DNA from: Cyanidioschyzon merolae
Lineage: Eukaryota
Strand: one strand, 5' to 3'
DNA length: 64,000 nucleotides
Assembly (NCBI GenBank): GCA_000091205.1
Contig: AP006488.2
A program made the translations under genes and the position numbers. Every line of letters starts with the position of its first letter. Positions within the stretch are counted from its first letter, which is position 1. A model generated the notes under the pieces. It saw only the letters and a list, made by a program, of their open reading frames with translations. It was not told the DNA's origin and searched no databases. Positions 376-51,700 of the stretch are shown one piece after another.

Positions 376-1128
376 TTATGTAAAGAGCATCGCGAAGGCA
401 CCACCATTGAATCGTGCAATACCCAGCAACCGCAACGGTACGCCATCGAGGGACGCGTTCGCGCTTGGTAATGGTACCAGGCCCACTGCGATGGTATCGT
501 TTGCAATCACGAATATATAGGATATCGCAGTAAAGACACGGTAGAAACGAGCACCCATTTGTTTGTGATGACAACAGGTATACGGCAGCTGCTGGAGCAC
601 TCGGAAGGTGCGGTAGAGCTCCATGGCAATCCAGCCATCGAGGAAAATGCGCATGGTAACCACGAGCGCAAACGTAAGCGAGTAGGCCACTTGTTGTTGG
701 TGTCCACGCATAGCAAACTGAACCAACATGCCCGGCCAGGTGAGTCCTAACGTCGTTCGAGACCAGCCGCAAATGGCTGTCTCCACGGCGGCGATGATCA
801 AACAGAGACCAAATACCACGCGGTTTCGTTCTAGAAACGTGTGGCGATCCTTCATATCACGATAGAGTCGTAGAATAGCCATGGCGTGTCCATAAAAACC
901 AAATATCCAGAACCATTGCCAGACCAGGTCGGAGACATAGAGAATGGCGATCGTGGTGCCGCTCGCTTCTCCGATATCGTTCGTGCAATTTTGCCTATCA
1001 TATTCATCGTAAAGAAAATAAATAGACCTTGTAGGAAGCAGCTGCGCATTTCGAAGGTGCGACGGATTCATCCATACCGATAGAGACGCAAAAAGTAGAC
1101 GATCGTGAAAGTAAGCTGGAGCACGCAA
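376..1128 (-). CDS. Hypothetical multi-pass membrane protein, possibly truncated or extended by the window edge. The ORF starts at a TTG; the first in-frame ATG is ~1071.
   Basis: The 250-aa ORF has several hydrophobic 20-25-aa segments (WFWIFGFYGHAMAIL, VVFGLCLIIAAVETAICGW, VAYSLTFALVVTMRIFLDGWIAM, FTAISYIFVIANDTIAVGLV). No family motif was recognised. Confidence 0.3.
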   Translation of the reverse strand: MRAPAYFHDRLLFASLSVWMNPSHLRNAQLLPTRSIYFLYDEYDRQNCTNDIGEASGTTIAILYVSDLVWQWFWIFGFYGHAMAILRLYRDMKDRHTFLERNRVVFGLCLIIAAVETAICGWSRTTLGLTWPGMLVQFAMRGHQQQVAYSLTFALVVTMRIFLDGWIAMELYRTFRVLQQLPYTCCHHKQMGARFYRVFTAISYIFVIANDTIAVGLVPLPSANASLDGVPLRLLGIARFNGGAFAMLFT

Positions 1129-1889
1129 AAGCAGTACACGACGACGCGGTCAACGAGGTTGCGTGCCGGGAGTGCCGCTTCGAAACGGCGTGCAAACAGA
1201 CTCATTGCTAGCGTGTAGGTGACGGAGAGCACGATTGCACTGCATAAGTTGAGAATTTGCCAAGTTACCTGCTTCGAGGATAGCGTCTCAAGGAGGAACT
1301 TGGCTTCCTTTGGATCGCTTCGATCTGTGGTGGAGCAAAGAAACCCGACAAACGACTGCGGTGACGTGCACTGCTTCGACGTGTGCGCGTGCCTCGTTCC
1401 TGTCCATTGATGAGTTCGCTGCTGCCTCTTAGCGTGCTGTCTCCAAATGTCTCCGACTCGAACGAGGAGACGGAGGTACCACGATCAGCCATGAGGGCAG
1501 CGTGCAAGCAGAATTAGAGTTGCATATTGTTCGGTACCCGTGCACTGCAGTGCAGAGTATACGGACCACGAAGCATGAATATGGCAAAGAAGGTTCGTTT
1601 TTATGTATGGAGCGGTGCGTATGCGCATACGCTCACACACGTTCACAAGCCCCAAGTCGGCTAGCTGAGGATTCCTGCACTGCACTGTACTGCACTGCCG
1701 TTCTTGGTCGTTCGAATTCTGTCCATCCAGAAACGCATCCCATGCGGACGCTCGAGACGCTCTCTGCTCACCAGCGCGACTCCATGAGGCTCCATTCCTG
1801 CTATGCATATTCGTATGCTATGTTGATGTGTATAGCAGAAGGTCGAGATGTAGAAGCAATGTGCTGTATAGATCGTAGACGAATAGAAT

Positions 1890-3200
1890 GTTAGATATAT
1901 ATTCTTTACTGAACAGTGCAAGGTGGACTGCATTCCTCGTTCAGGTACGGTTCACCACAGTATTCAGATGGACGAGGAACACTGAAATAAAGAAGCAAGT
2001 ACATGCGATCCGCACCGAAACCAGATATACTCATAGCGTGCTTGCGTTCACTGGTAGAAAAACGACCCGTTGATTACTTTAGGGAAGGGGAAAGCGACGA
2101 TGATACCCATCACCTCTATCTGTTTTTCTCGCCAGCTAATTCGTGTGATCCTGAATGCACTGGCATACAGTCGCGATAAAGTCCTGGTTCATGCACAGCC
2201 GTCTTGTATCGAATTCGCAACGACAGCGTTCCCGGAACGTCCCGATCGGCACGAGGCACAGAGACGTAGCTCTGTCTTTTTCAGACGATGCGACTTTCTT
2301 TGGCCGAAATGGTCGGGGCGTACATGGGTAGTCGCGGGGATGGAGCCAGCTGTATGTATGATCGAACTTGATGAGAGCGAGGACATCATCAACTGTTTGA
2401 GCTGCAGTGGATTCATTTGGCGGCCGCAGTTTCGCTCAGAGGGAAGGCTCGTAGAACAGCACACACTGTACCGAATCATGGAAGAAATTTCCCCTGACGT
2501 CTGACGACGTCGTCCGGTTGTACGGCTTGGTATTTCACCATTCCCCTTGCGTTCGAATGTTTGCTGATTCGATCGGGGAATAGAGCTGCTTTTCATTCCT
2601 CGATATAATCCGTGGTTGAGCCCCGTAGAAAGTGTTTTCTCTATTGTGAGACGTTTTTAATGCTCAACGGGGCGAGTCGCTGAAGCGTTCAGCACACATT
2701 GGTACCTGGCCACATTGCGTCCCTCGTCTGCAAGCCCTTTTTGCTCCGCTTAGCTCCTCATCTAACGGCATAAAGAAGCGCGCCATTTGAAGAAATAAGA
2801 AATCCAAGGGATGAGCTGCGGTGTACACTTCAGAACATCGAGATAGAGAGAAGGCAGCGGAGCGCTTCGCGCGATAGAAAAGTACGGAGAGCTGGCAGAG
2901 CAGCCAATGGTACTGAGTACTCGTGTTCTGGCAATCCTTGCATGGATGAGTTCAACAAGCGGCAATATATGCGAGGAGTTCGTGAAACGAGACTCCAACG
3001 TCACCTTCAGTATCTGACGATATGTAGTGCTGAAGAAGAGAACCGAGGAGCTGACGCGATACAGGTTTATGGGGCAGTCTCTCAGACTTGAAGTGCACAA
3101 GGAGAATCTGAGAACACGATACGAGTCTGCCGATCAAACAAGACTTGGAGGCGTCCTCGGATGGGTATTCATGCACCCCACATGATCGAGGAACTTTTTC
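1890..3200 (+). pseudogene. Degenerate Fanzor/TnpB-like element, copy A, a homolog of the copy at 50.5-51.7 kb. The RuvC-III motif has decayed to KRDSNVTF.
   Basis: Clear DNA and protein homology to the copy at 50530-51700. Both share the block '...FLWPKWSGRTWV...' / '...LFRTKWSGREWV...'. Both share a ~70-bp conserved DNA block (tttcccttgcgttcga...ggggaatagagctgc.tttcattcc at 2540-2610 vs 51160-51230). Both share the RuvC-III codons (agcggcaat.tatgc...ttc.tgaa.cg.gact..aac), here reading SGNICEEFVKRDSNVTF. Broken by stops and frameshifts. Confidence 0.45.
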
Positions 3201-25611: not shown

Positions 25612-25873
25612 AGACTAGACAAGACTTAAAGAACCTCCTGCAAAGAGCGGAATCACAGACTCGAGAACCGGAACAGAGTACCAAACAGCTGTGAAGGAAC
25701 AACCCAGGAGTGTCCACGGAAACGCCTTTATAAGGACGTGGAGCACACACCACCACCGCCGTTCTAAGTCGAACGACGTCGGGCGTGTACAGTAGTGGCG
25801 AGAAACCCGCCTTGGACAAGAAATCTTCCACTGCGGTGTAGACGCCTTCCAGCCCTTTGAGAACGGCCACCCA

Positions 25874-26314
25874 CTACTGCTTCCAAATTTCTATCATATA
25901 GTTAAACATGAAGAGGTGTCCAATGAAGTTCTCTCTTGTCGACTCTGGAGGTCTTTTCTCCAGCACCGCACATCTCCTTATATTGATTGCGGCATTAAAG
26001 TCTCGGTTCACAAACTCCATACGTTTCTTGCAATTGATTGTACTTCCTAATGCAAGTAGCCCTCGAACTTTCGCCCTCCTTTCCATTTGCTCGTCTGTCA
26101 GCGGTCCGTACTTTGCGATTTCCTCAGGGCTCCGTTGGCACTTTTCCATCTCGACCCTATGAAGTATACAGTCCAGTCCATGGTGTATATACGATGTTCG
26201 AAACTCATCTACAGGTATTGTAACAAAACGCCTTGCCCACTCCTTGTACGTTCTTGTCGTTGGAGCTGGCGTAGTCCATTTTTTGGGTCTTCTAGCGCCC
26301 TGCTCCGTACGCTT
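25874..26314 (-). CDS. Fanzor-like nuclease, C-terminal segment. It carries a TS motif, a Cys/His cluster and the RuvC-III catalytic motif.
   Basis: The open frame reads ...TIPVDEFRTSYIHHGLDCILHRVEMEKCQRSPEEIAKYGPLTDEQMERRAKVRGLLALGSTINCKKRMEFVNRDFNAAINIRRC.... The '(N/D)RDxNAAxNI' element is the hallmark RuvC-III of TnpB/Fanzor/Cas12. The frame is offset from the middle segment by a ~90-100-nt putative intron (gtttgc...tag). Confidence 0.6.
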   Translation of the reverse strand, partial: KRTEQGARRPKKWTTPAPTTRTYKEWARRFVTIPVDEFRTSYIHHGLDCILHRVEMEKCQRSPEEIAKYGPLTDEQMERRAKVRGLLALGSTINCKKRMEFVNRDFNAAINIRRCAVLEKRPPESTRENFIGHLFMFNYMIEIWKQ

Positions 26315-26401
26315 CTACTAGCCTCTGATTTTCATCCTCCTTCAGGGCACTCAACTGATTGAAAAAATTCGCGAACGCCCGCTGCTTCCCACAATACAAA
26401 T

Positions 26402-27187
26402 TCATTCGCAAACGAGCCCACGGGGGTTGGTATACTTCTCCCACAGCGCATCCCAATGCGCCATGCGAACTTTCATGAACTCCCGAAAAGCTTCAAAGTC
26501 CGCCCCTCGGCTCGTCACCTCGCTCAAAGCTTCCAGGTGATCCTTCGTTCCTGAATTCCATGTAACGATTTTCTTCCTCGCATTCATGGTGCCCGATTCC
26601 CGATTGTATCTCGCTCTCGAGAACCTCAAAAGACGCATGTCTTTCTGACGTAAGTTACCATCAGTCCCATCTTCCGCACACTTTGGTACAGAGATGGTTA
26701 TGATATTTGTATTCCCAGGGTCCGCGGCAACGACAAAGTCGTTATCTTCCACTTTCTGGGTCGCAGGATCCGCCTCCTTCTTTTCTTCATCCTTCGCCGC
26801 GTCAAAGACAAAGTCGTTATCCTGCACTTTCTGGGTCGCAGGACCAGCCTCCTCCTCATCTTCATTCTTCGCCGCGTCAAACATAAAGTCGTTATCCTCC
26901 ACCTCCTGCGTCGCAGGACCAGCCTCCTCTTTGTTTTCTTCATGCATCGCCGTGCCAACGACAAGGTCGTTATCTCGCACCTCCTGCGTCGCAGGACCCG
27001 CCTTCTTCTCATCTTCATGGTTCGCCGAAGGCGGAACTGGCCGATCTTTCTTCAACCGCCGATAGTGTATACATAAGGCCACTCCATCGGTTTCGATCAC
27101 CCCCGTGAATACCTTTTGTTTGCTCACGTTGAGACGTTTGAAATCGAAGATACTCCTCCAGTACGTCTCCCGTTTTTCACCGGAGAA
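26402..27187 (-). CDS. Fanzor-like nuclease, middle segment. It carries a 24-aa x4 acidic tandem repeat and then a RuvC-I-like motif.
   Basis: '...[21 protein letters not shown]...' resembles the D-P-G RuvC-I motif of Fanzor (I/V-D-P-G). It is preceded by four copies of 'EEAGPATQ(E/K)V(E/Q)DNDF(M/V)FDAAK(N/D)E(D/E)'. Confidence 0.55.
26715..27010. repeat. In-frame 72-bp (24-codon) tandem repeat x4 inside the Fanzor-like coding region.
   Basis: The DNA unit '...aaagtcgttatcctgcactttctgggtcgcaggaccagcctcctcctcatcttcattcttcgccgcgtcaaagaca...' repeats 4 times. Antisense ORFs 26694-27065 (+) and 26698-27018 (-) are by-products. Confidence 0.8.
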
Positions 27188-27437
27188 TTACTCCCTGCTG
27201 ACATCGAACTCGGGACTGATCTCCCTCATGATGCCATGAAGGACTGCGGAGTCGGTAGTCACAAAATGTGACTTGATCTTGCACACTGGAACCACGTCGA
27301 AGCGCTTACCCATTCGGAAAGCCTTCCGTCTCTCCTACTCTTCATTTGTCTCTTCACTCAGCTTCATCTCTGCCTTGCGTTCGAACTCTCGCTCCAAAAA
27401 CACAAAATAGCGCACGATGAGGCGATAGTATCTTTCC

Positions 27438-28334
27438 TTACCTTTTTTTCAACACTGATATCTTTTCTGTTGGATTCGCCAGCCCCAGTACCGCACGGTG
27501 CTCTTGTATAACCGCGCGGATGACGGAGTCCTCATTTGTGCTCCTGCGTGACGTCTTCTTGTCGACGAATTCGACCTCACCTTCATGCTTGCGATCTTTC
27601 GTGATGCCATTGATAATCGCAAATTTTCCATTGCGAGACAGACCCGGGTAGAGTGCAAACACGGCGCGTATCATGAAACGTTCGAGGTTCGTTGTCAAAC
27701 GGTTCTTCAGGTTCGTAATGTACTTCATTGCCCCGTATGTGTAAATATCCTGGTCACCCTTGTATCGAGTACCATTGAAGCTGTAAAAGGGATGTTTTCC
27801 GTGGAGGGCATGCACCCGCTCATTTTCCATCCGCGCTTCCTTTGTACCAAGCATCAGCTGACGAATAAACTTCTTATCGAAAAACTCGTCTGGAATCTCG
27901 ACCGTTTCCATGTGCGTCACGTCGCGATACATCTCTCTCACCAAATGCATCAGTCCTGACGACGCCTTGACGATACTCTTGGAGTATGACGCAACACGTT
28001 TTTCGATAGCGTCTCGCAACTTTTCCCTGTAGGGATCCTTGATATGTCCAAGAAGAAAGGTTTTCACCACCATCTCGTTGTACAGCCGTCTTTCTTGCCG
28101 CCTTCGACGTAGGGCCTCTCCCTTTAGGTCCTTCTTCGCTTCCTTGTCTTCTGGACTCGGCACAGTTTTCGTTTTTTTCTGGTAGTCGGCGACCCTCGGC
28201 CTCCAGGATCGTCGACTTGCTTTTTCATAACTTTCCTTTTTTAGTTTTTTTTTGAAAAAGAAAGCTCCTGGAACGCTTCTGTTATATACTGCGAAAAAAC
28301 AATTGAATACACATGTTTGAGGTTTGAGACTCAA
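27438..28334 (-). CDS. Fanzor-like nuclease, N-terminal segment (298 aa). It ends at an AG|GTAAGG splice donor.
   Basis: Uninterrupted basic/charged N-terminal region. The ORF's TAA stop lies inside 'aaaaaaaGGTAAGG' (+strand ccttacc at 27436-27442), a consensus 5' splice donor. Confidence 0.55.
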   Translation of the reverse strand: MSLKPQTCVFNCFFAVYNRSVPGAFFFKKKLKKESYEKASRRSWRPRVADYQKKTKTVPSPEDKEAKKDLKGEALRRRRQERRLYNEMVVKTFLLGHIKDPYREKLRDAIEKRVASYSKSIVKASSGLMHLVREMYRDVTHMETVEIPDEFFDKKFIRQLMLGTKEARMENERVHALHGKHPFYSFNGTRYKGDQDIYTYGAMKYITNLKNRLTTNLERFMIRAVFALYPGLSRNGKFAIINGITKDRKHEGEVEFVDKKTSRRSTNEDSVIRAVIQEHRAVLGLANPTEKISVLKKR

Positions 28335-28711
28335 ATGAACTGAAAACTATACTTGGCTATGAAGTTAACGAAAATACAACTTTTACATTAGAGCTACATG
28401 CTAGATATCAAGATCACGTTTTCCTTCGACGGCGGCATTTTTTTCATAAACAAAACGTTTCCTTTGGCCAGCGTTCTCCGACTATGCGCGTTTCTCTTTT
28501 CTTACTTTTTTGTGTTTTCCAATGTGCGGTGAAGTATCCATCAAACAGCCTACTTCCAAGTTCCATTACCTATACTTCTTCTAGGATATTCTGGTCGTTT
28601 CATACGTCCTATCGGGTGTGCCTCGTACCTGCCTTTCTGTATTCGCCTTTGCACCTTAAATGCTGGAGCAGATACCTCATAGAGACAGAACGGCGTTGCC
28701 GTACCACAGAG

Positions 28712-28830
28712 GGCGTCGGCTCAAGGCGTGGTTCACCCGACGTAGAATCGGGTGTCGTTGTCTGTTTGTGCTCGGACAGTCTGCGGATGCAGGCCTGTCT
28801 TCGCTGTACGACACGCTGGAGACACTTGGC
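28712..28830. repeat. Dispersed repeat, copy 1 of a pair with 33806-33925. About 75% identical and in the same orientation.
   Basis: 'gtgctcggacagtctgcggatgcaggcctgtcttcgctgtacgacacg' aligns to 'gtgctcgcccagtctgcgtatgcagacctgccttcgcggcacgacggg' and the flanking ~60 bp. Both copies translate on the minus strand to similar peptides (RRQACIRRLSEH.../RRQVCIRRLGEH...). Confidence 0.6.
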
Positions 28831-30451
28831 TGTTAGGATAAATCGAGGGAGTCGCCTCCCTCCTTTGTGATCATGCATGGAATGCGTTGTCGTCGGTTGG
28901 CAATGCGGATTTGTGCTTGACACCCACCACAGTGGGTAGGCGCAGAAAGCGCACTGGCCCCGTGTTCGCATCCGATCCGCTGGACCTTCCGCCCAGAAGG
29001 TAGCATGTGAGTTTGTTCGCCATTAATGAGCGCTGAGGCTCCGTTAGCGGACCATCAGTTGCCAGTGCTGCACTCAAAGTGAGTGTCCGGCCTTCGCCTA
29101 TCACGGCGATGTCCAGCTGCTGCTGTCCTTCAAGGAGCTCGCTGCGCTCCTGTTTCCAGTGCGGGCACTATAAGCCTAAATATGTCAGCGTCTCGGGGGT
29201 CTGGTCTCCAGAGCAGGGACAGTGTGATTCCCAGTGCGATTCCGGTGTTTCCGTACGGCTTAGAGACGGTGCTAGTCAGAAACCACCAACGCGGATTTCG
29301 GCGATCCACTGGGTACCTCGAGCAAGTCCCGGGAATTCCAGCACCCACTACCAGTACTTGCATGTGTATGCTAGGGTGTAGTTCCGGATAGGGTCAAGCC
29401 GGCGTTACTTGCGCGACTGGTTCCATGTCTACATTCCCGTACTGTTGTTTGGACCGTTCGCTTCAGGCGACGGGAGAATTCTATATTTCTGGGGAACGAT
29501 TGGGTAGCGTGTTTTCGCGTAAGAGGCGCTTCAGCCAAATCTGCGCTGATTTCATCCAAGTGTTCTAGCGGTGCGTTGGGGTCTGCATGAAAATCCGACT
29601 GAACCAGGTGTACATGGTGGGCCCTTTGGCCCACACACGTGCCTGGCAGCCTGCTGCTATCGCTTCTATTGAGGGTATTTGGAGTTCAAGTCCGAGTGCC
29701 AGGCAGGTTGGTTGCTCTGCTCTGCATTGAGCATCCAACAGCAACAACGAGTCGCATTGCCCTGTTGGCGGCTATCTGCAGACGTGAGATATTTGTGTGG
29801 TTCATGCCGCACCATTCAGCACCCCAGGTCGCAGGCTGGATGATACACATCCTTAGCGCCCTGGTACGAATTGCTAAGGGGATAGAGGGGTCGGATGGGA
29901 ATGGGCGTGCGATCGCTGTACGTCTATGCATCTTGGCGATCATCTCGTCGATGTGTGCCTTTTCGTCGAGCGTCGGCGTGAGACAGACCCTGCAGATAGC
30001 GATATTTTTCCACGATTGGAATTTCCTGATTCTGCAACCGCCACGAGCGATTGCGAATGCTCTGCGAGTCTCCATGGATGAGCATGACGCCGCACTTCGA
30101 TGCTCCTACGTTCATCTTCCAGCGATCGACCCAGGTGCTGACTTGTTCCATGCTAGCCGCAAGCGTTTCCGGGGCGGATGCCAACAGCACGACATCGTCC
30201 GCAAGTAGAAGGCCTGCGAGGCGGTTCGTATGTGAGGGCTCCTCATCGGGCATCTCCACAGTCTATCCACGGCACCTCAAGCCCGTATTGTCTGCAGTTG
30301 TTCAGCAGATCGTTGATGAAGATGTTGAAAAGGAGCGGGGATGCGGGGTCGCTCTGTCGCAGTCCACGGCGGATTCTTATACGAGGGATTCATGAGCCGT
30401 CGCCCAGTCGGATGCGCATCCATGAGTCTGCATAGAGCGCCCGGAAGAATG

Positions 30452-31480
30452 CTAAGCACTTTTCGGAGACTCCGGCGCGTTCCATCTTGAGAAATAGAGC
30501 CTCATGCGGGACCGTGTCAAAGGCCTTTTGAAAGTCGATGAAGCATACATGAGGATCGGTGCGACCTCAACACTCCTACATACATCAGGGATGTATGCTT
30601 CTTCGAACATGCGTTGGATGAGCTCCAGAAGGCGTTTGCCCAGGATTCTGTCAGATTCATCTGGTATCGATGGTGTCCCTGTTGTCTCGTCTTTTGGGGT
30701 CGCCAGTTTCATCCACTCCGTCGCGATACCGTCGATGCCAGGTGTTTTGCGGTTGCTTGAGCATAGCAGGGTCCGAACAGATTCAGGCCAGAAGATTGGG
30801 TCGTTCCATACCGGTACCGGTTCGAGGCGCGGTAGTTCTGCAGCATATTGGTGCCGATAGATTCGGTTTTGGCAGTGCCCAGTTGCGTCTTCATGCAGCT
30901 CTGTCCCGTGGTCTGTGCAGGCCTCATTCACTGAGGCACTCTCCGTCCTCAGCGCTTCCTCATAAACGATTGGTGTGAGCCCCAGGCACTTTTTTGGTGG
31001 GTCAAGTCTCGATCGGATGTAGCGCCAGGTCTCATCTTCGTTGGTGCTCTCTAGCATAGATTTCGCCAGGGCGGCGATTTTGCGGCTTCGATCCTCTCGT
31101 TTGTCTTCTCTGGAAAGTTTCTTCTCTCTTTTGATAGCTTCCTCATGTTGTGCCTGTAGCGCCGGTAGCGCTGCCTTCGCTTCCATGTCTCCGGCGTTGG
31201 CGCGTATGGCGGTGCGGTTGACGATCTTATAGAGTCGGCGGTATTCATCAATCCGAGTTTTGGTACGTCGTTTCAGGAACTGAGGTTTGCAACTGTTGTG
31301 TTCTGGTCCAAGCAGTCCCAGCTCTCTGGCGGTCTTCTGATTCCCAGCTACAAACTCGCGTGCCAATTGGTCTAAAGATTTGCATGCACGGCTTTTCGGA
31401 TCTACAGCGCTGTGAGTAGGTGACTGGGTTTGGCGACGGCTTTCTTGAGTTCCTGCTCGGGTGCTCTTTCGGGGGATCAC
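30452..31480 (-). CDS. LINE ORF2 reverse-transcriptase N-terminal fragment.
   Basis: KTPGIDGI (RT domain 1) and ...RLLELIQRMFEEAYIPDVCRS... The RT continues in the shifted ORFs 29924-30259 and 29686-30075. Confidence 0.6.
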   Translation of the reverse strand: MIPRKSTRAGTQESRRQTQSPTHSAVDPKSRACKSLDQLAREFVAGNQKTARELGLLGPEHNSCKPQFLKRRTKTRIDEYRRLYKIVNRTAIRANAGDMEAKAALPALQAQHEEAIKREKKLSREDKREDRSRKIAALAKSMLESTNEDETWRYIRSRLDPPKKCLGLTPIVYEEALRTESASVNEACTDHGTELHEDATGHCQNRIYRHQYAAELPRLEPVPVWNDPIFWPESVRTLLCSSNRKTPGIDGIATEWMKLATPKDETTGTPSIPDESDRILGKRLLELIQRMFEEAYIPDVCRSVEVAPILMYASSTFKRPLTRSRMRLYFSRWNAPESPKSA

Positions 31481-31511
31481 TCATGATGGGCTCGTTTGGG
31501 AGTTCTTCTTT

Positions 31512-32441
31512 CTATTCTTCTGTTTTTTTCTTGCTGGTCTTTTTCTTCTTCGGGCTCTTTCCTGAGCTGCATTCTCTGCTTATTTTGCATCTAGGTGGAT
31601 CATGAGGTTTCTGTGCCTCCTTCTCCGTATCCCGTTGGGTCTCTTTCGCTATTGTAGATCCCTCTATTGTTGTCTCTTCTTCGTTAATGTACTGATAATT
31701 CGTTATCTTTTCTCGGAAGGCTGCAAGTGACTTGTTGGTTAGCATCCGGGCTTGGTATGTTGAGGGTGCACTTGCTGGTAACCCTTGCTGTGCGCTCTGA
31801 GTCGTGTCGGCTGCTGGTTCAGCATTTTGGTTCCTCGGGCGCGGGTACCATCTGCAATGGATGGGCCAGTGATCTGAGGCATCCCAAATTCGGTCAACGG
31901 CGGTTTGTAGGAGTGCCGGGTCGCATCGGTCGCTTAAGATGTGGTCTATCGATGAGCGAAGCAAACGTTGGTCGGTAATGCGGTGCCACGTCAGGGGTGA
32001 ACCTCTACACGGATTCACCGACAGGAATCCGCATCTCATTCGTTGTAGGTGTTGCCTAAGGTGGCCCGCCGACATGTTAAAATCTCCCATAATTATCATC
32101 GGTTCCTGATTCCGTGTGCGGCGTTTCAATCGCTGGATGTTGGAGGCCAACTCTTTGAGTGCCTGTTGGCGCATCTCTCCGGCGTGTGGTATATAAATGG
32201 AGCCCACAAGCCAAGGTGCAGGCTGACCTGGAATTGTAACACTCACAAAGACCATCCATGGAGACGGGTTGCCGACCGCATAGCAAGTGAGGCGTCGATC
32301 GACAGTGAGCGCCACACCACGTGTGCGTAACGAAGTTGGCTTCTCCGTAGGGTCTACGTATGTTGGTTCAAAGGTGTTGTCGCCTGGGGTATGCAGACGA
32401 TAATACGTCTTTGTGTTCTCTGAGTGTAGTGTCTCCTGCAA
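31512..32441 (-). CDS. LINE ORF2 endonuclease (APE/EEP) domain fragment.
   Basis: GDFNM, IDHIL and SDHWP motifs are typical of L1/RTE-type AP-endonuclease domains. Confidence 0.65.
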   Translation of the reverse strand: MQETLHSENTKTYYRLHTPGDNTFEPTYVDPTEKPTSLRTRGVALTVDRRLTCYAVGNPSPWMVFVSVTIPGQPAPWLVGSIYIPHAGEMRQQALKELASNIQRLKRRTRNQEPMIIMGDFNMSAGHLRQHLQRMRCGFLSVNPCRGSPLTWHRITDQRLLRSSIDHILSDRCDPALLQTAVDRIWDASDHWPIHCRWYPRPRNQNAEPAADTTQSAQQGLPASAPSTYQARMLTNKSLAAFREKITNYQYINEEETTIEGSTIAKETQRDTEKEAQKPHDPPRCKISRECSSGKSPKKKKTSKKKTEE

Positions 32442-50529: not shown

Positions 50530-51700
50530 TTTAATGGTCAGTACAAGAAGGACTGCATTCTCTCTTCAGCATGGTCACACCACAGTACTCAGATGGGTAC
50601 GGAAGACTGCGGGAAAAAGAGTATGCGCTTGGCCCCATAAACCGATATTATGAAAGACTGGCTGCGGTCAATGGTCGAAATCGACCCGTTAATGACCTTA
50701 CGGAATGCAAAACGAGGTGGTGGCCGACATGTACGTTTCTGTTTCTCAACAGATTGTTCATGTTGTCTTGAAAACATATGAATACAATCGCGAAAGGAGC
50801 GTCAGATTTCACCCGAGGTCATCTACCGACATCGAAACGACAGCGTTCCTGGAACAAAGGGATCAATATGGAGCACAGGGACGTCGATTTGTTTTTCTCA
50901 GACGATGGGACTTGTTTCGGACGAAATGGTCAGGGCGCGAATGGGTACTCGCGGAGCAGGGAGCCCGTTGTATGTACAATCGAACTAGAAGGTAGCTAAG
51001 GCATCATCATCTGTTCTAGATACAGTTGGTTCACGTAGCGGCCGCAGTATCGTTCGTACAGGAGGCTCATCCAACAGCATCAACGACTTTGTCGAAGTAC
51101 TCGAACTTCTTTCCTTGACGTCCAGAAACGCACTGCTTTGGATGCCGTGGCATCTCATCGTTTCCCTTGCGTTCGAGCTTTTGCCGATTCTATCGGGGTA
51201 GAGCTGCGTTTCATTCCTTCGTACGCTTTGTGGTCCAATCGCATAAAAAGGAGTGTTGCCTGTCGTGAAACGTAGTGATCGCTCCACTGGACGAATCGCT
51301 GAAGCGTTCATCACACGGGGACATATTAAGGCACATTTCGTGTTCCTTGAGCCAGTCCTGCTCGCTCCGGGAACGTCCTCACCACAACCTATAAAAAACT
51401 GCGTTCGTTTTCAAAGAATTAAGGTAGAGCCACGATGCATAATTCAGAAGTTCGACATGGAGAGAAGGCAGCGGAACGCTTCGGCGATAGCAGAGGACGC
51501 AGAGCTGACACAGCACCAAATGGTTCAGAGGGCGCGAGTTCTACGACACTTTGCACTGGTGAGTACAAACAGCGGCAATAAATGCATGGACTTCATGAAC
51601 CGCGACTTTAACGCTGCTATCAAGAACAGACGATTTGATAAGATGAAGACGAGACCCGTGGAGCAGACGCGAGCCAACCTTGTAGGGCAGCCTCTCAGTC
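50530..51700 (+). pseudogene. Degenerate Fanzor/TnpB-like element, copy B. It retains RuvC-III 'NRDFNAAIKNRR' but the zinc-finger Cys have changed to Arg.
   Basis: '...PRCIIQKFDMERRQRNASAIAEDAELTQHQMVQRARVLRHFALVSTNSGNKCMDFMNRDFNAAIKNRRF' aligns residue by residue with copy C 'LDCILHRVEMEKCQRSPEEIAKYGPLTDEQMERRAKVRGLLALGSTINCKKRMEFVNRDFNAAINIRRC'. The upstream part is homologous to copy A at DNA level. Interrupted by stops. Confidence 0.5.

Follow-up and report, generated by a model that had tools for sequence, protein, structure and literature searches.

The array described here raises the question of what an acidic tandem repeat is doing within the reading frame of a transposon-encoded nuclease. 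The repeat lies on the minus strand of a 64,000-nucleotide stretch of DNA from Cyanidioschyzon merolae (contig AP006488.2), which was analyzed as a whole and is referred to as the window. An initial annotation made from the sequence had considered both a functional adaptation and a tolerated minisatellite, and assumed a recent expansion within an otherwise intact Fanzor-like gene. The results presented here make it likely that the array is an old, neutrally evolving coding minisatellite (VNTR) in a length-tolerant disordered loop of a dead copy of the Fanzor1 family CMe-1A.

The family CMe-1A of C. merolae comprises approximately 150 copies without TIRs, each of which shows about 80% identity to a consensus of about 3 kb (Bao & Jurka 2013, Mobile DNA 4:12, PMC3627910). 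The window matches positions 703-3137 of this consensus at 28434-25785(-) with 85-87% nucleotide identity, in detail 84.7% over consensus positions 703-2196 and 87.4% over positions 2120-3137. These values lie above the identity of at least about 80% to the 3169-bp consensus that was taken as indicative of membership. The reading frames of the window are collinear with the published 734-aa CMe-1 protein in tblastn analysis, and repeat-family coverage extends over approximately 25740-28430. Based on the consensus match and on this collinearity the host ORF is a copy of the known element. According to the consensus alignment and tblastn with the consensus protein, this degenerate copy spans 25785..28434(-), with its ATG at 28228. 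In the published consensus the 5' part of about 635 bp is shared with TE-N2_CMe and is positioned upstream of the ORF in the same orientation (PMC3627910). In the window only consensus positions 84-271 were found (28549-28741), and their orientation is opposite to that of the ORF. The 5' part of this copy is rearranged or truncated.

Several further repeats surround the copy. Upstream of the Fanzor ORF, positions 28438-29703 harbor another repeat that is common to some loci and includes the TE-N2_CMe-like consensus segment 84-271, which is inverted with respect to the ORF here but has the consensus orientation in the paralogous locus L001. The orthologous metagenome locus L015 breaks off at position 28439 and resumes at about 32904; thus, strains differ structurally upstream of the Fanzor copy. 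The copy is adjoined by a degenerate non-LTR retrotransposon (29924-32441(-)), of which an RVT_1 fragment (29924-30259(-), E 7e-5) and an ORF for an Exo_endo_phos endonuclease (31512-32441(-), E 7e-9) are recognizable. Four more Fanzor-like C-terminal fragments comprising RuvC-II/III-TNB are located at 51436-51690(+), 52441-52112(-), 2874-3077(+) and 21130-20777(-). They are 31-47% identical to CMe-1-type proteins and probably represent remnants of other Fanzor1 families. Within the window no Rfam family was detected at the gathering threshold.

The reconstructed protein has 174 relatives; the closest of these show 70-80% identity and all stem from JGI or ENA metagenomes. A single-sequence phmmer search with P0001, the longest paralog (752 aa), gave no match among the PDB sequences, and the solved Fanzor1 structures were reached only with a profile of 118 sequences (hmmsearch; PpFz1 5.4e-19, SpuFz1 7.6e-12, GtFz1 0.011). 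Pfam analysis yielded merely a weak Cas12f1-like_TNB match for the ORF pieces (E 0.0056) and no match for the intact paralogs P0001 and P0115. The precomputed label PF26935/DUF8286 was uninformative, and no mention of it was found in the literature. An AlphaFold2 model of P0001 (mean pLDDT 83.9, pTM 0.81) was compared to the PDB using Foldseek, and the first seven hits were SpuFz, PpFz and GtFz (E 1e-15 to 5e-13, target TM-score up to 0.73). Profile and fold both revealed similarity to the REC/WED/RuvC/TNB architecture of the solved proteins. The predicted structure shares its overall fold with SpuFz1 (8GKH, 9CEU-9CEZ), PpFz1 (9CF0-3) and GtFz1 (9CER-T), including the succession of WED-hairpin, loop and RuvC beta-1, whereas the sequence identity between the solved proteins and the CMe-1 type is just 12-15%.

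All three motifs of the RuvC triad (DPG, DEFRTS and NRDxNAA) are present in the window copy. The codon for the RuvC-II glutamate (26204..26206(-)), located in the motif VDEFRTS at 26212-26192, is retained, with the frame broken upstream of it. The codon for the RuvC-III aspartate (26000..26002(-)) lies in the motif NRDFNAAINI at 26008-25979, to which the weak Cas12f1-like_TNB match also corresponds. In the alignment of 118 sequences the residues D484 and E656 are invariant and D725 is nearly invariant. The profile alignment equates D484 and E656 of P0001 with D383 and E541 of SpuFz1, which are published catalytic residues. The ORF that was initially described as Fanzor-like can thus be specified, by consensus, profile and fold matches, as Fanzor1 of the family CMe-1A.

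Judged by its sequence, the window copy is a Fanzor1 pseudogene of this family and not a functional member. With respect to the CMe-1 consensus protein the frame changes about five times, near positions 28170, 27446, 26424, 26285 and 25915, and homopolymer runs are found at 27446 (A7), 26424 (C5) and 26285 (A6). In-frame stops occur at 27337-27335(-), where a TAG replaces the tryptophan (TGG) of the paralogs and the serine (TCG) of the consensus, at 27190-27188(-), where a TAA replaces glutamate or aspartate of the paralogs, and at 26294-26292(-), where a G-to-A transition has converted the tryptophan codon TGG of consensus and paralogs into TAG. A further in-frame stop lies near 25905, and the total for this copy is at least three. 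An uninterrupted ORF is thus absent, and the assumption of an otherwise intact gene had to be abandoned. Introns were rejected as a cause of the frame breaks, as the paralogs read straight through in one frame; the breaks in the window copy are 1-nt changes in homopolymers, plus stop substitutions (26294-26292 and 27337-27335). Since the gene is broken, the array has no function in this copy.

This state is typical for the sampled family members. Essentially all of the 48 distinct metagenome loci bear stops or frameshifts, and even at the otherwise 'intact' P0001 locus the ATG is out of frame with the main ORF. The same displacement of the Fanzor1 ATG (MKKQVDDPGG…) relative to the main ORF was observed in the window (28228-28127) and in the paralog L001 (9880-10010), which has no other interruption. 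The shift is positioned in A-runs (A6-A7) encoding a basic KKRK stretch, and CDS positions 40-60 represent the densest frameshift hot spot of the family (20 events in 48 loci). It could be due to shared decay, sequencing error or slippage-dependent expression.

The array itself was reported by Tandem Repeats Finder at 26722-27027 with a period of 75, 4.0 copies, 81% matches and a score of 359. Self-BLAST of the region gave shifted matches with E values of about 1e-53, and a tandem array of this kind is far beyond chance expectation. Together with slicing into units and translation, the array was delimited to 26699..27028(-). It begins with a leader, SANHEDEKK (27028-27002(-)), which is followed by four head-to-tail units. 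Unit 1 comprises 78 bp or 26 aa (27001-26924(-)), whereas unit 2 (26923-26849(-)), unit 3 (26848-26774(-)) and unit 4 (26773-26699(-)) have 75 bp or 25 aa each. Unit 4 is the native copy, the last eight codons of which encode DPGNTNII, and only three units are extra. The GAC codon of the catalytic RuvC-I aspartate (26722-26720(-)) is codon 18 of unit 4 and belongs to the motif AADPGNT (26728-26708(-)), which directly abuts the array; the homology between the repeats stops exactly at this aspartate codon. The array is in the frame of an ORF fragment of 241 aa (26402..27127(-)), which is limited by an in-frame TAA upstream and by the frameshift in the C5 run downstream. Pairwise identities between units range from 78 to 89% over 54 homologous nucleotides. 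The 100 aa of the array contain 31 D+E versus 10 K+R residues, resulting in a net charge of about -21. Two overlapping reading frames, a plus-strand ORF at 26694..27065 and an alternative minus-frame ORF at 26698..27018, were discarded as by-products of the periodicity with R- or S-rich nonsense translations. The exact translation thus bears out the initial description of four acidic units that are in frame with the flanking coding sequence just upstream of RuvC-I. Its period of 72 bp or 24 aa was too short, and the units are less similar than the term near-identical implied.

The position of the array in the protein was deduced from the P0001 model. In this model the last WED hairpin is formed by strands at residues 351-358 and 362-370, and strand beta-1 of the RuvC domain comprises residues 479-485. 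Residues 379-469, which correspond to the leader and three internal units, are the sole long low-confidence stretch (pLDDT 26-45) and show no secondary structure. A disordered insertion, as proposed initially, agrees with this prediction, in which pLDDT stays below 50 across the array in an otherwise confident Fanzor1 fold. Directly upstream of the array, the window encodes at 27029..27097(-) what the model identifies as the last WED beta-hairpin, followed by the conserved beginning of the loop between WED and RuvC, a segment that was aligned to TDGASVSVYLKHPEADKY345 of SpuFz1. The insertion had been regarded as unusual for the inside of a RuvC nuclease, but its site is the linker between WED and RuvC, the length of which varies within the family anyway. 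Among relatives with 33-64% identity the spacing between TDG and DPG is 27-53 aa in 112 proteins and 69 aa in P0233, as compared to 122 aa in P0001. The sequence of the linker shows no conservation across 113 relatives, and in 112 of 114 relatives (33-64% identity) the loop is short, of mixed charge and devoid of a comparable insert.

It has been shown for solved Fanzor1 proteins that the WED-RuvC loop helps to start DNA unwinding (PMC11423790), and the stacking residue Y345 of SpuFz1 stabilises the unwound DNA (Xu et al., PMC11423790). Due to this role of the loop, the site of the array cannot be regarded as functionally inert a priori. Based on the profile alignment and a numbering offset of 394 for the MBP fusion, Y345 would fall a few residues past the WED strand, that is within the conserved segment upstream of the array. 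The array would then extend the loop in its distal portion, whereas the functional portion is the proximal one. Acidic sequences were also observed in this loop in two distant proteins, both about 32-37% identical to P0115. The 69-aa linker of P0233 is acidic with heptad-like INVEDSE/INEGNEE/INVENEE repeats, and P0172 harbors a D/E-rich stretch. The WED-RuvC loop may be a recurrent site for independent acidic expansions.

The number of units was determined in 80 related loci, which were clustered into 48 distinct ones, and the lowest copy number was taken for each distinct locus. In the 80 loci and the window the distance between the anchors is always a multiple of three and corresponds to one to seven units. 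A single unit was found at one of the 48 loci, two units at 10, three at 11, four at 16, five at seven and six at three; the maximum of seven occurs in one allele. At least two units are therefore present in 47 of the 48 distinct loci. Three orthologous pairs of loci are collinear over about 10 kb, which includes 4 kb of flanking sequence at either end, and are 97-99% identical. They differ solely by whole units, namely L016 and L018 (seven versus three), L038 and L039 (five versus three) and L054 and L067 (three versus two), that is by four, two and one units, respectively. These differences are an allelic or strain-level length polymorphism, and the whole-unit variation between alleles that characterizes coding VNTRs is thus found in the family at three pairs. 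No length polymorphism was detected at the locus of the window itself, as four units are present in each of L015, L064 and L066, which match the window with 97% identity in the element as well as in the adjacent TPR gene. All that these metagenome loci demonstrate is the presence of close relatives in environmental samples. The search for copy-number variation suggested in the initial annotation was thus positive both among paralogs and between orthologous alleles. The annotation had also named an outcome that would speak against it, namely a repeat confined to one pseudogene copy; the window copy has indeed decayed into a pseudogene, yet the array is present in nearly all other copies as well.

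The selective regime was assessed by dN/dS from Nei-Gojobori counts in 43 representative loci. The values are derived from short paralogous units and non-independent pairs with possible gene conversion, and part of the divergence is decay after insertion as most copies are pseudogenes; within these limits dN/dS was 0.25 for the 100 codons downstream of DPG and 0.43 for the 50 codons upstream of the array, in comparison to 0.83 for the linker part of the terminal unit and to 1.02 (between loci, all pairs) and 1.13 (within arrays) for the internal units. Restricted to nearest neighbours, the internal units gave 0.80 and the downstream flank 0.28. The flanks serve as a control for pseudogene decay, because they were taken from the same copies as the units. 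In the units, nucleotide diversity is spread evenly over the three codon positions (0.216/0.171/0.200), whereas downstream it is 0.114/0.074/0.216. Purifying selection or wider conservation, as expected for a functional acidic domain, was thus found neither by dN/dS nor among the relatives, 112 of 114 of which do without a comparable insert. Selection on composition or length, which would be invisible to dN/dS, might underlie the presence of at least two units in 47 of 48 loci and the strong acidity of all units.

Two apparent signals of constraint were rejected. The arrays contain no frameshifting indels in 14 kb, where the gene-wide rate predicts about 14, even with homopolymer context allowed for. 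However, frameshifts cluster in a few hot spots, namely in A-runs around CDS positions 300-400 and 700-800 and towards the C-terminus at 2000-2200, and the local rate in the 500 nt bracketing the array (three frameshifts in 24 kb) predicts only about 1.8 events; a protection of the arrays from frameshifts was therefore dismissed. The low density of in-frame stops in the arrays (2.2 versus 4.5 per 1000 codons) was not accepted as a sign of selection either, since codon content accounts for it. In the array, codons for E and K can become stops only by transversion, whereas the flanks contain TGG, CGA and CAG codons. With regard to age, the nearest relative of a unit belongs to another locus in 139 of 158 cases and to its own array in only 11. 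This indicates that the array is old at the level of the family, with occasional recent duplications.

The origin of the unit can be traced to the protein itself. The published consensus and one divergent lineage, L036/L037/L074, show a single-unit state, 'SA(K/S..)HE(E/D)EK.ADPATQ.VQ.NDFV.GADPG', which indicates that the unit consists of native linker and beta-1 sequence and not of foreign DNA. The 75-bp unit would have arisen when the 25 codons directly preceding the RuvC-I aspartate were duplicated in tandem; these codons encode the distal WED-RuvC linker together with the initial half of strand beta-1 of the RuvC domain. A duplication of these 25 codons yields exactly the observed period, in which …FVVGA is followed directly by AKHEDEKEADP…. 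In the internal units the hydrophobic DNDF/LVV core is kept and D-P-G-N-T is replaced by (A/T)-K-(H/D)-E-(E/D); they may be regarded as carrying a decayed pseudo-beta-1 (DNDFVVDAAKHEE...) that lacks the aspartate. Only the last unit would join DPG and fold into the nuclease core, and the extra units would, according to the model, extend a disordered acidic tether and leave the fold undisturbed. Whole units were presumably gained and lost through replication slippage or unequal exchange. As the unit measures 3 x 25 nt, such events keep the frame automatically. The amino acid sequence of the units would drift neutrally. The elements that seeded most of the copies probably possessed a multi-unit array already, the length of which appears to be still shifting between strains.

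Other explanations of the array were considered. It might be a selected functional module, namely an acidic disordered tether adjoining the loop that starts R-loop formation. Such a tether might auto-inhibit the nuclease by mimicking DNA or RNA, bind histones or chromatin, or tune activity through its length as a spacer. The location directly after the segment aligned with Y345 of SpuFz1, the net charge of about -21 over 100 aa, the maintenance of multi-unit arrays in 47 of 48 distinct loci and the independent acidic stretches of P0233 and P0172 in the same loop are in line with such a role. It is nevertheless unlikely, as the dN/dS of the units is about 0.8-1.0 in contrast to 0.25-0.43 in the flanks, the copy number of one to seven is unconstrained and varies between near-identical alleles, and short loops, mixed in charge, were found in 112 of 114 relatives. 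In addition, the published consensus serves as a model of the family with one unit, no structured element and no conserved motif beyond the inherited sequence was found, and the window copy as well as nearly all sampled copies are pseudogenes. The DNA-mimic, chromatin-interaction and nuclear-targeting functions that were initially suggested thus gained no positive evidence, and a regulatory role of the tether, conceivable through selection on charge or length rather than sequence, finds no support in the results. An even less likely version holds that the acidic units, tethered next to the wedge loop between WED and RuvC, mimic nucleic acid and compete with TAM-proximal DNA or the guide-target junction, with the number of units as a fast-evolving rheostat damping cleavage; the acidic expansions of P0233 and P0172 would fit this proposal.

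A recent, copy-specific expansion at the window locus shortly before sampling, as initially assumed, is already contradicted by the data and must be considered highly improbable. Recent events do occur elsewhere in the family, as unit pairs with at least 95% identity were found within the arrays of L040, L043, L063 and L069 and alleles with 97-99% identity differ by whole units. The units of the window, however, are just 78-89% identical to one another, each of them is 92-96% identical to a unit of another locus and thus closer to it than to its neighbours, and the orthologs L015, L064 and L066 share the same four units at 97% identity. Still less probable is an array that was mis-expanded or mis-collapsed during assembly. 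Tandem repeats are error-prone in assembly, and several frameshifts of the window in homopolymer runs (A7, C5 and A6) could be sequencing errors; but metagenomes of at least three samples, assembled independently, show the same four-unit array at the orthologous locus, the divergence of the units allows unambiguous assembly, and in-register arrays were found in 80 independent loci. Among the initial readings the tolerated minisatellite fits best, given the relaxed dN/dS of the units relative to their flanks.

The neutrally evolving coding minisatellite can be compared to known systems. Like the window copy, most members of CMe-1A, a multicopy family of elements of about 3 kb, are degenerate. 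As published, the consensus has a single unit at the DNA as well as the protein level, whereas the window harbors four and 47 of 48 sampled loci two to seven. The term 'tandem repeat' is absent from the main text of the CMe-1A paper (PMC3627910), and the published consensus seems to have collapsed the array, with 734 aa being the length of a one-unit protein. As the array is absent from the consensus and no mention of it was found in the searchable Fanzor literature, it represents a small undescribed variant feature of a known family. In the profile alignment the WED-RuvC linker of solved Fanzor1 proteins measures about 45-50 aa and contains no tandem repeat, whereas the loop of CMe-1 reaches about 120-200 aa through the 25-aa repeats. 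The array resembles the FRI (PMC11423790) in that both are insertions into a Fanzor1 protein that are lineage-specific and about 100 aa long. The FRI, however, is folded into three helices and three strands, lies inside the RuvC domain and binds cyclophilin, whereas the array of CMe-1A is unstructured, repetitive, positioned before RuvC-I and neutrally evolving. With coding VNTRs it shares head-to-tail units with lengths that are multiples of three, whole-unit allelic polymorphism, relaxed amino acid constraint and location in a surface-exposed disordered region. It differs from typical examples in that the unit holds a duplicated half of a beta-strand of the catalytic core and in that the host is a transposon-encoded family of predicted RNA-guided nucleases.

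The WED-RuvC linker of Fanzor1 can take about 75-150 additional disordered acidic residues, which might be of minor use for engineering insertions or fusions at this site. The array also illustrates how, in nature, the duplication of half a catalytic-core strand gave rise to a coding VNTR and left the predicted fold unharmed. As it stands the finding matters little, and it would matter more if the number of units modulated nuclease activity. If the array did act as a rheostat that damps cleavage, such self-restraint would allow an element of high copy number to be maintained in a red-algal genome that is very compact.
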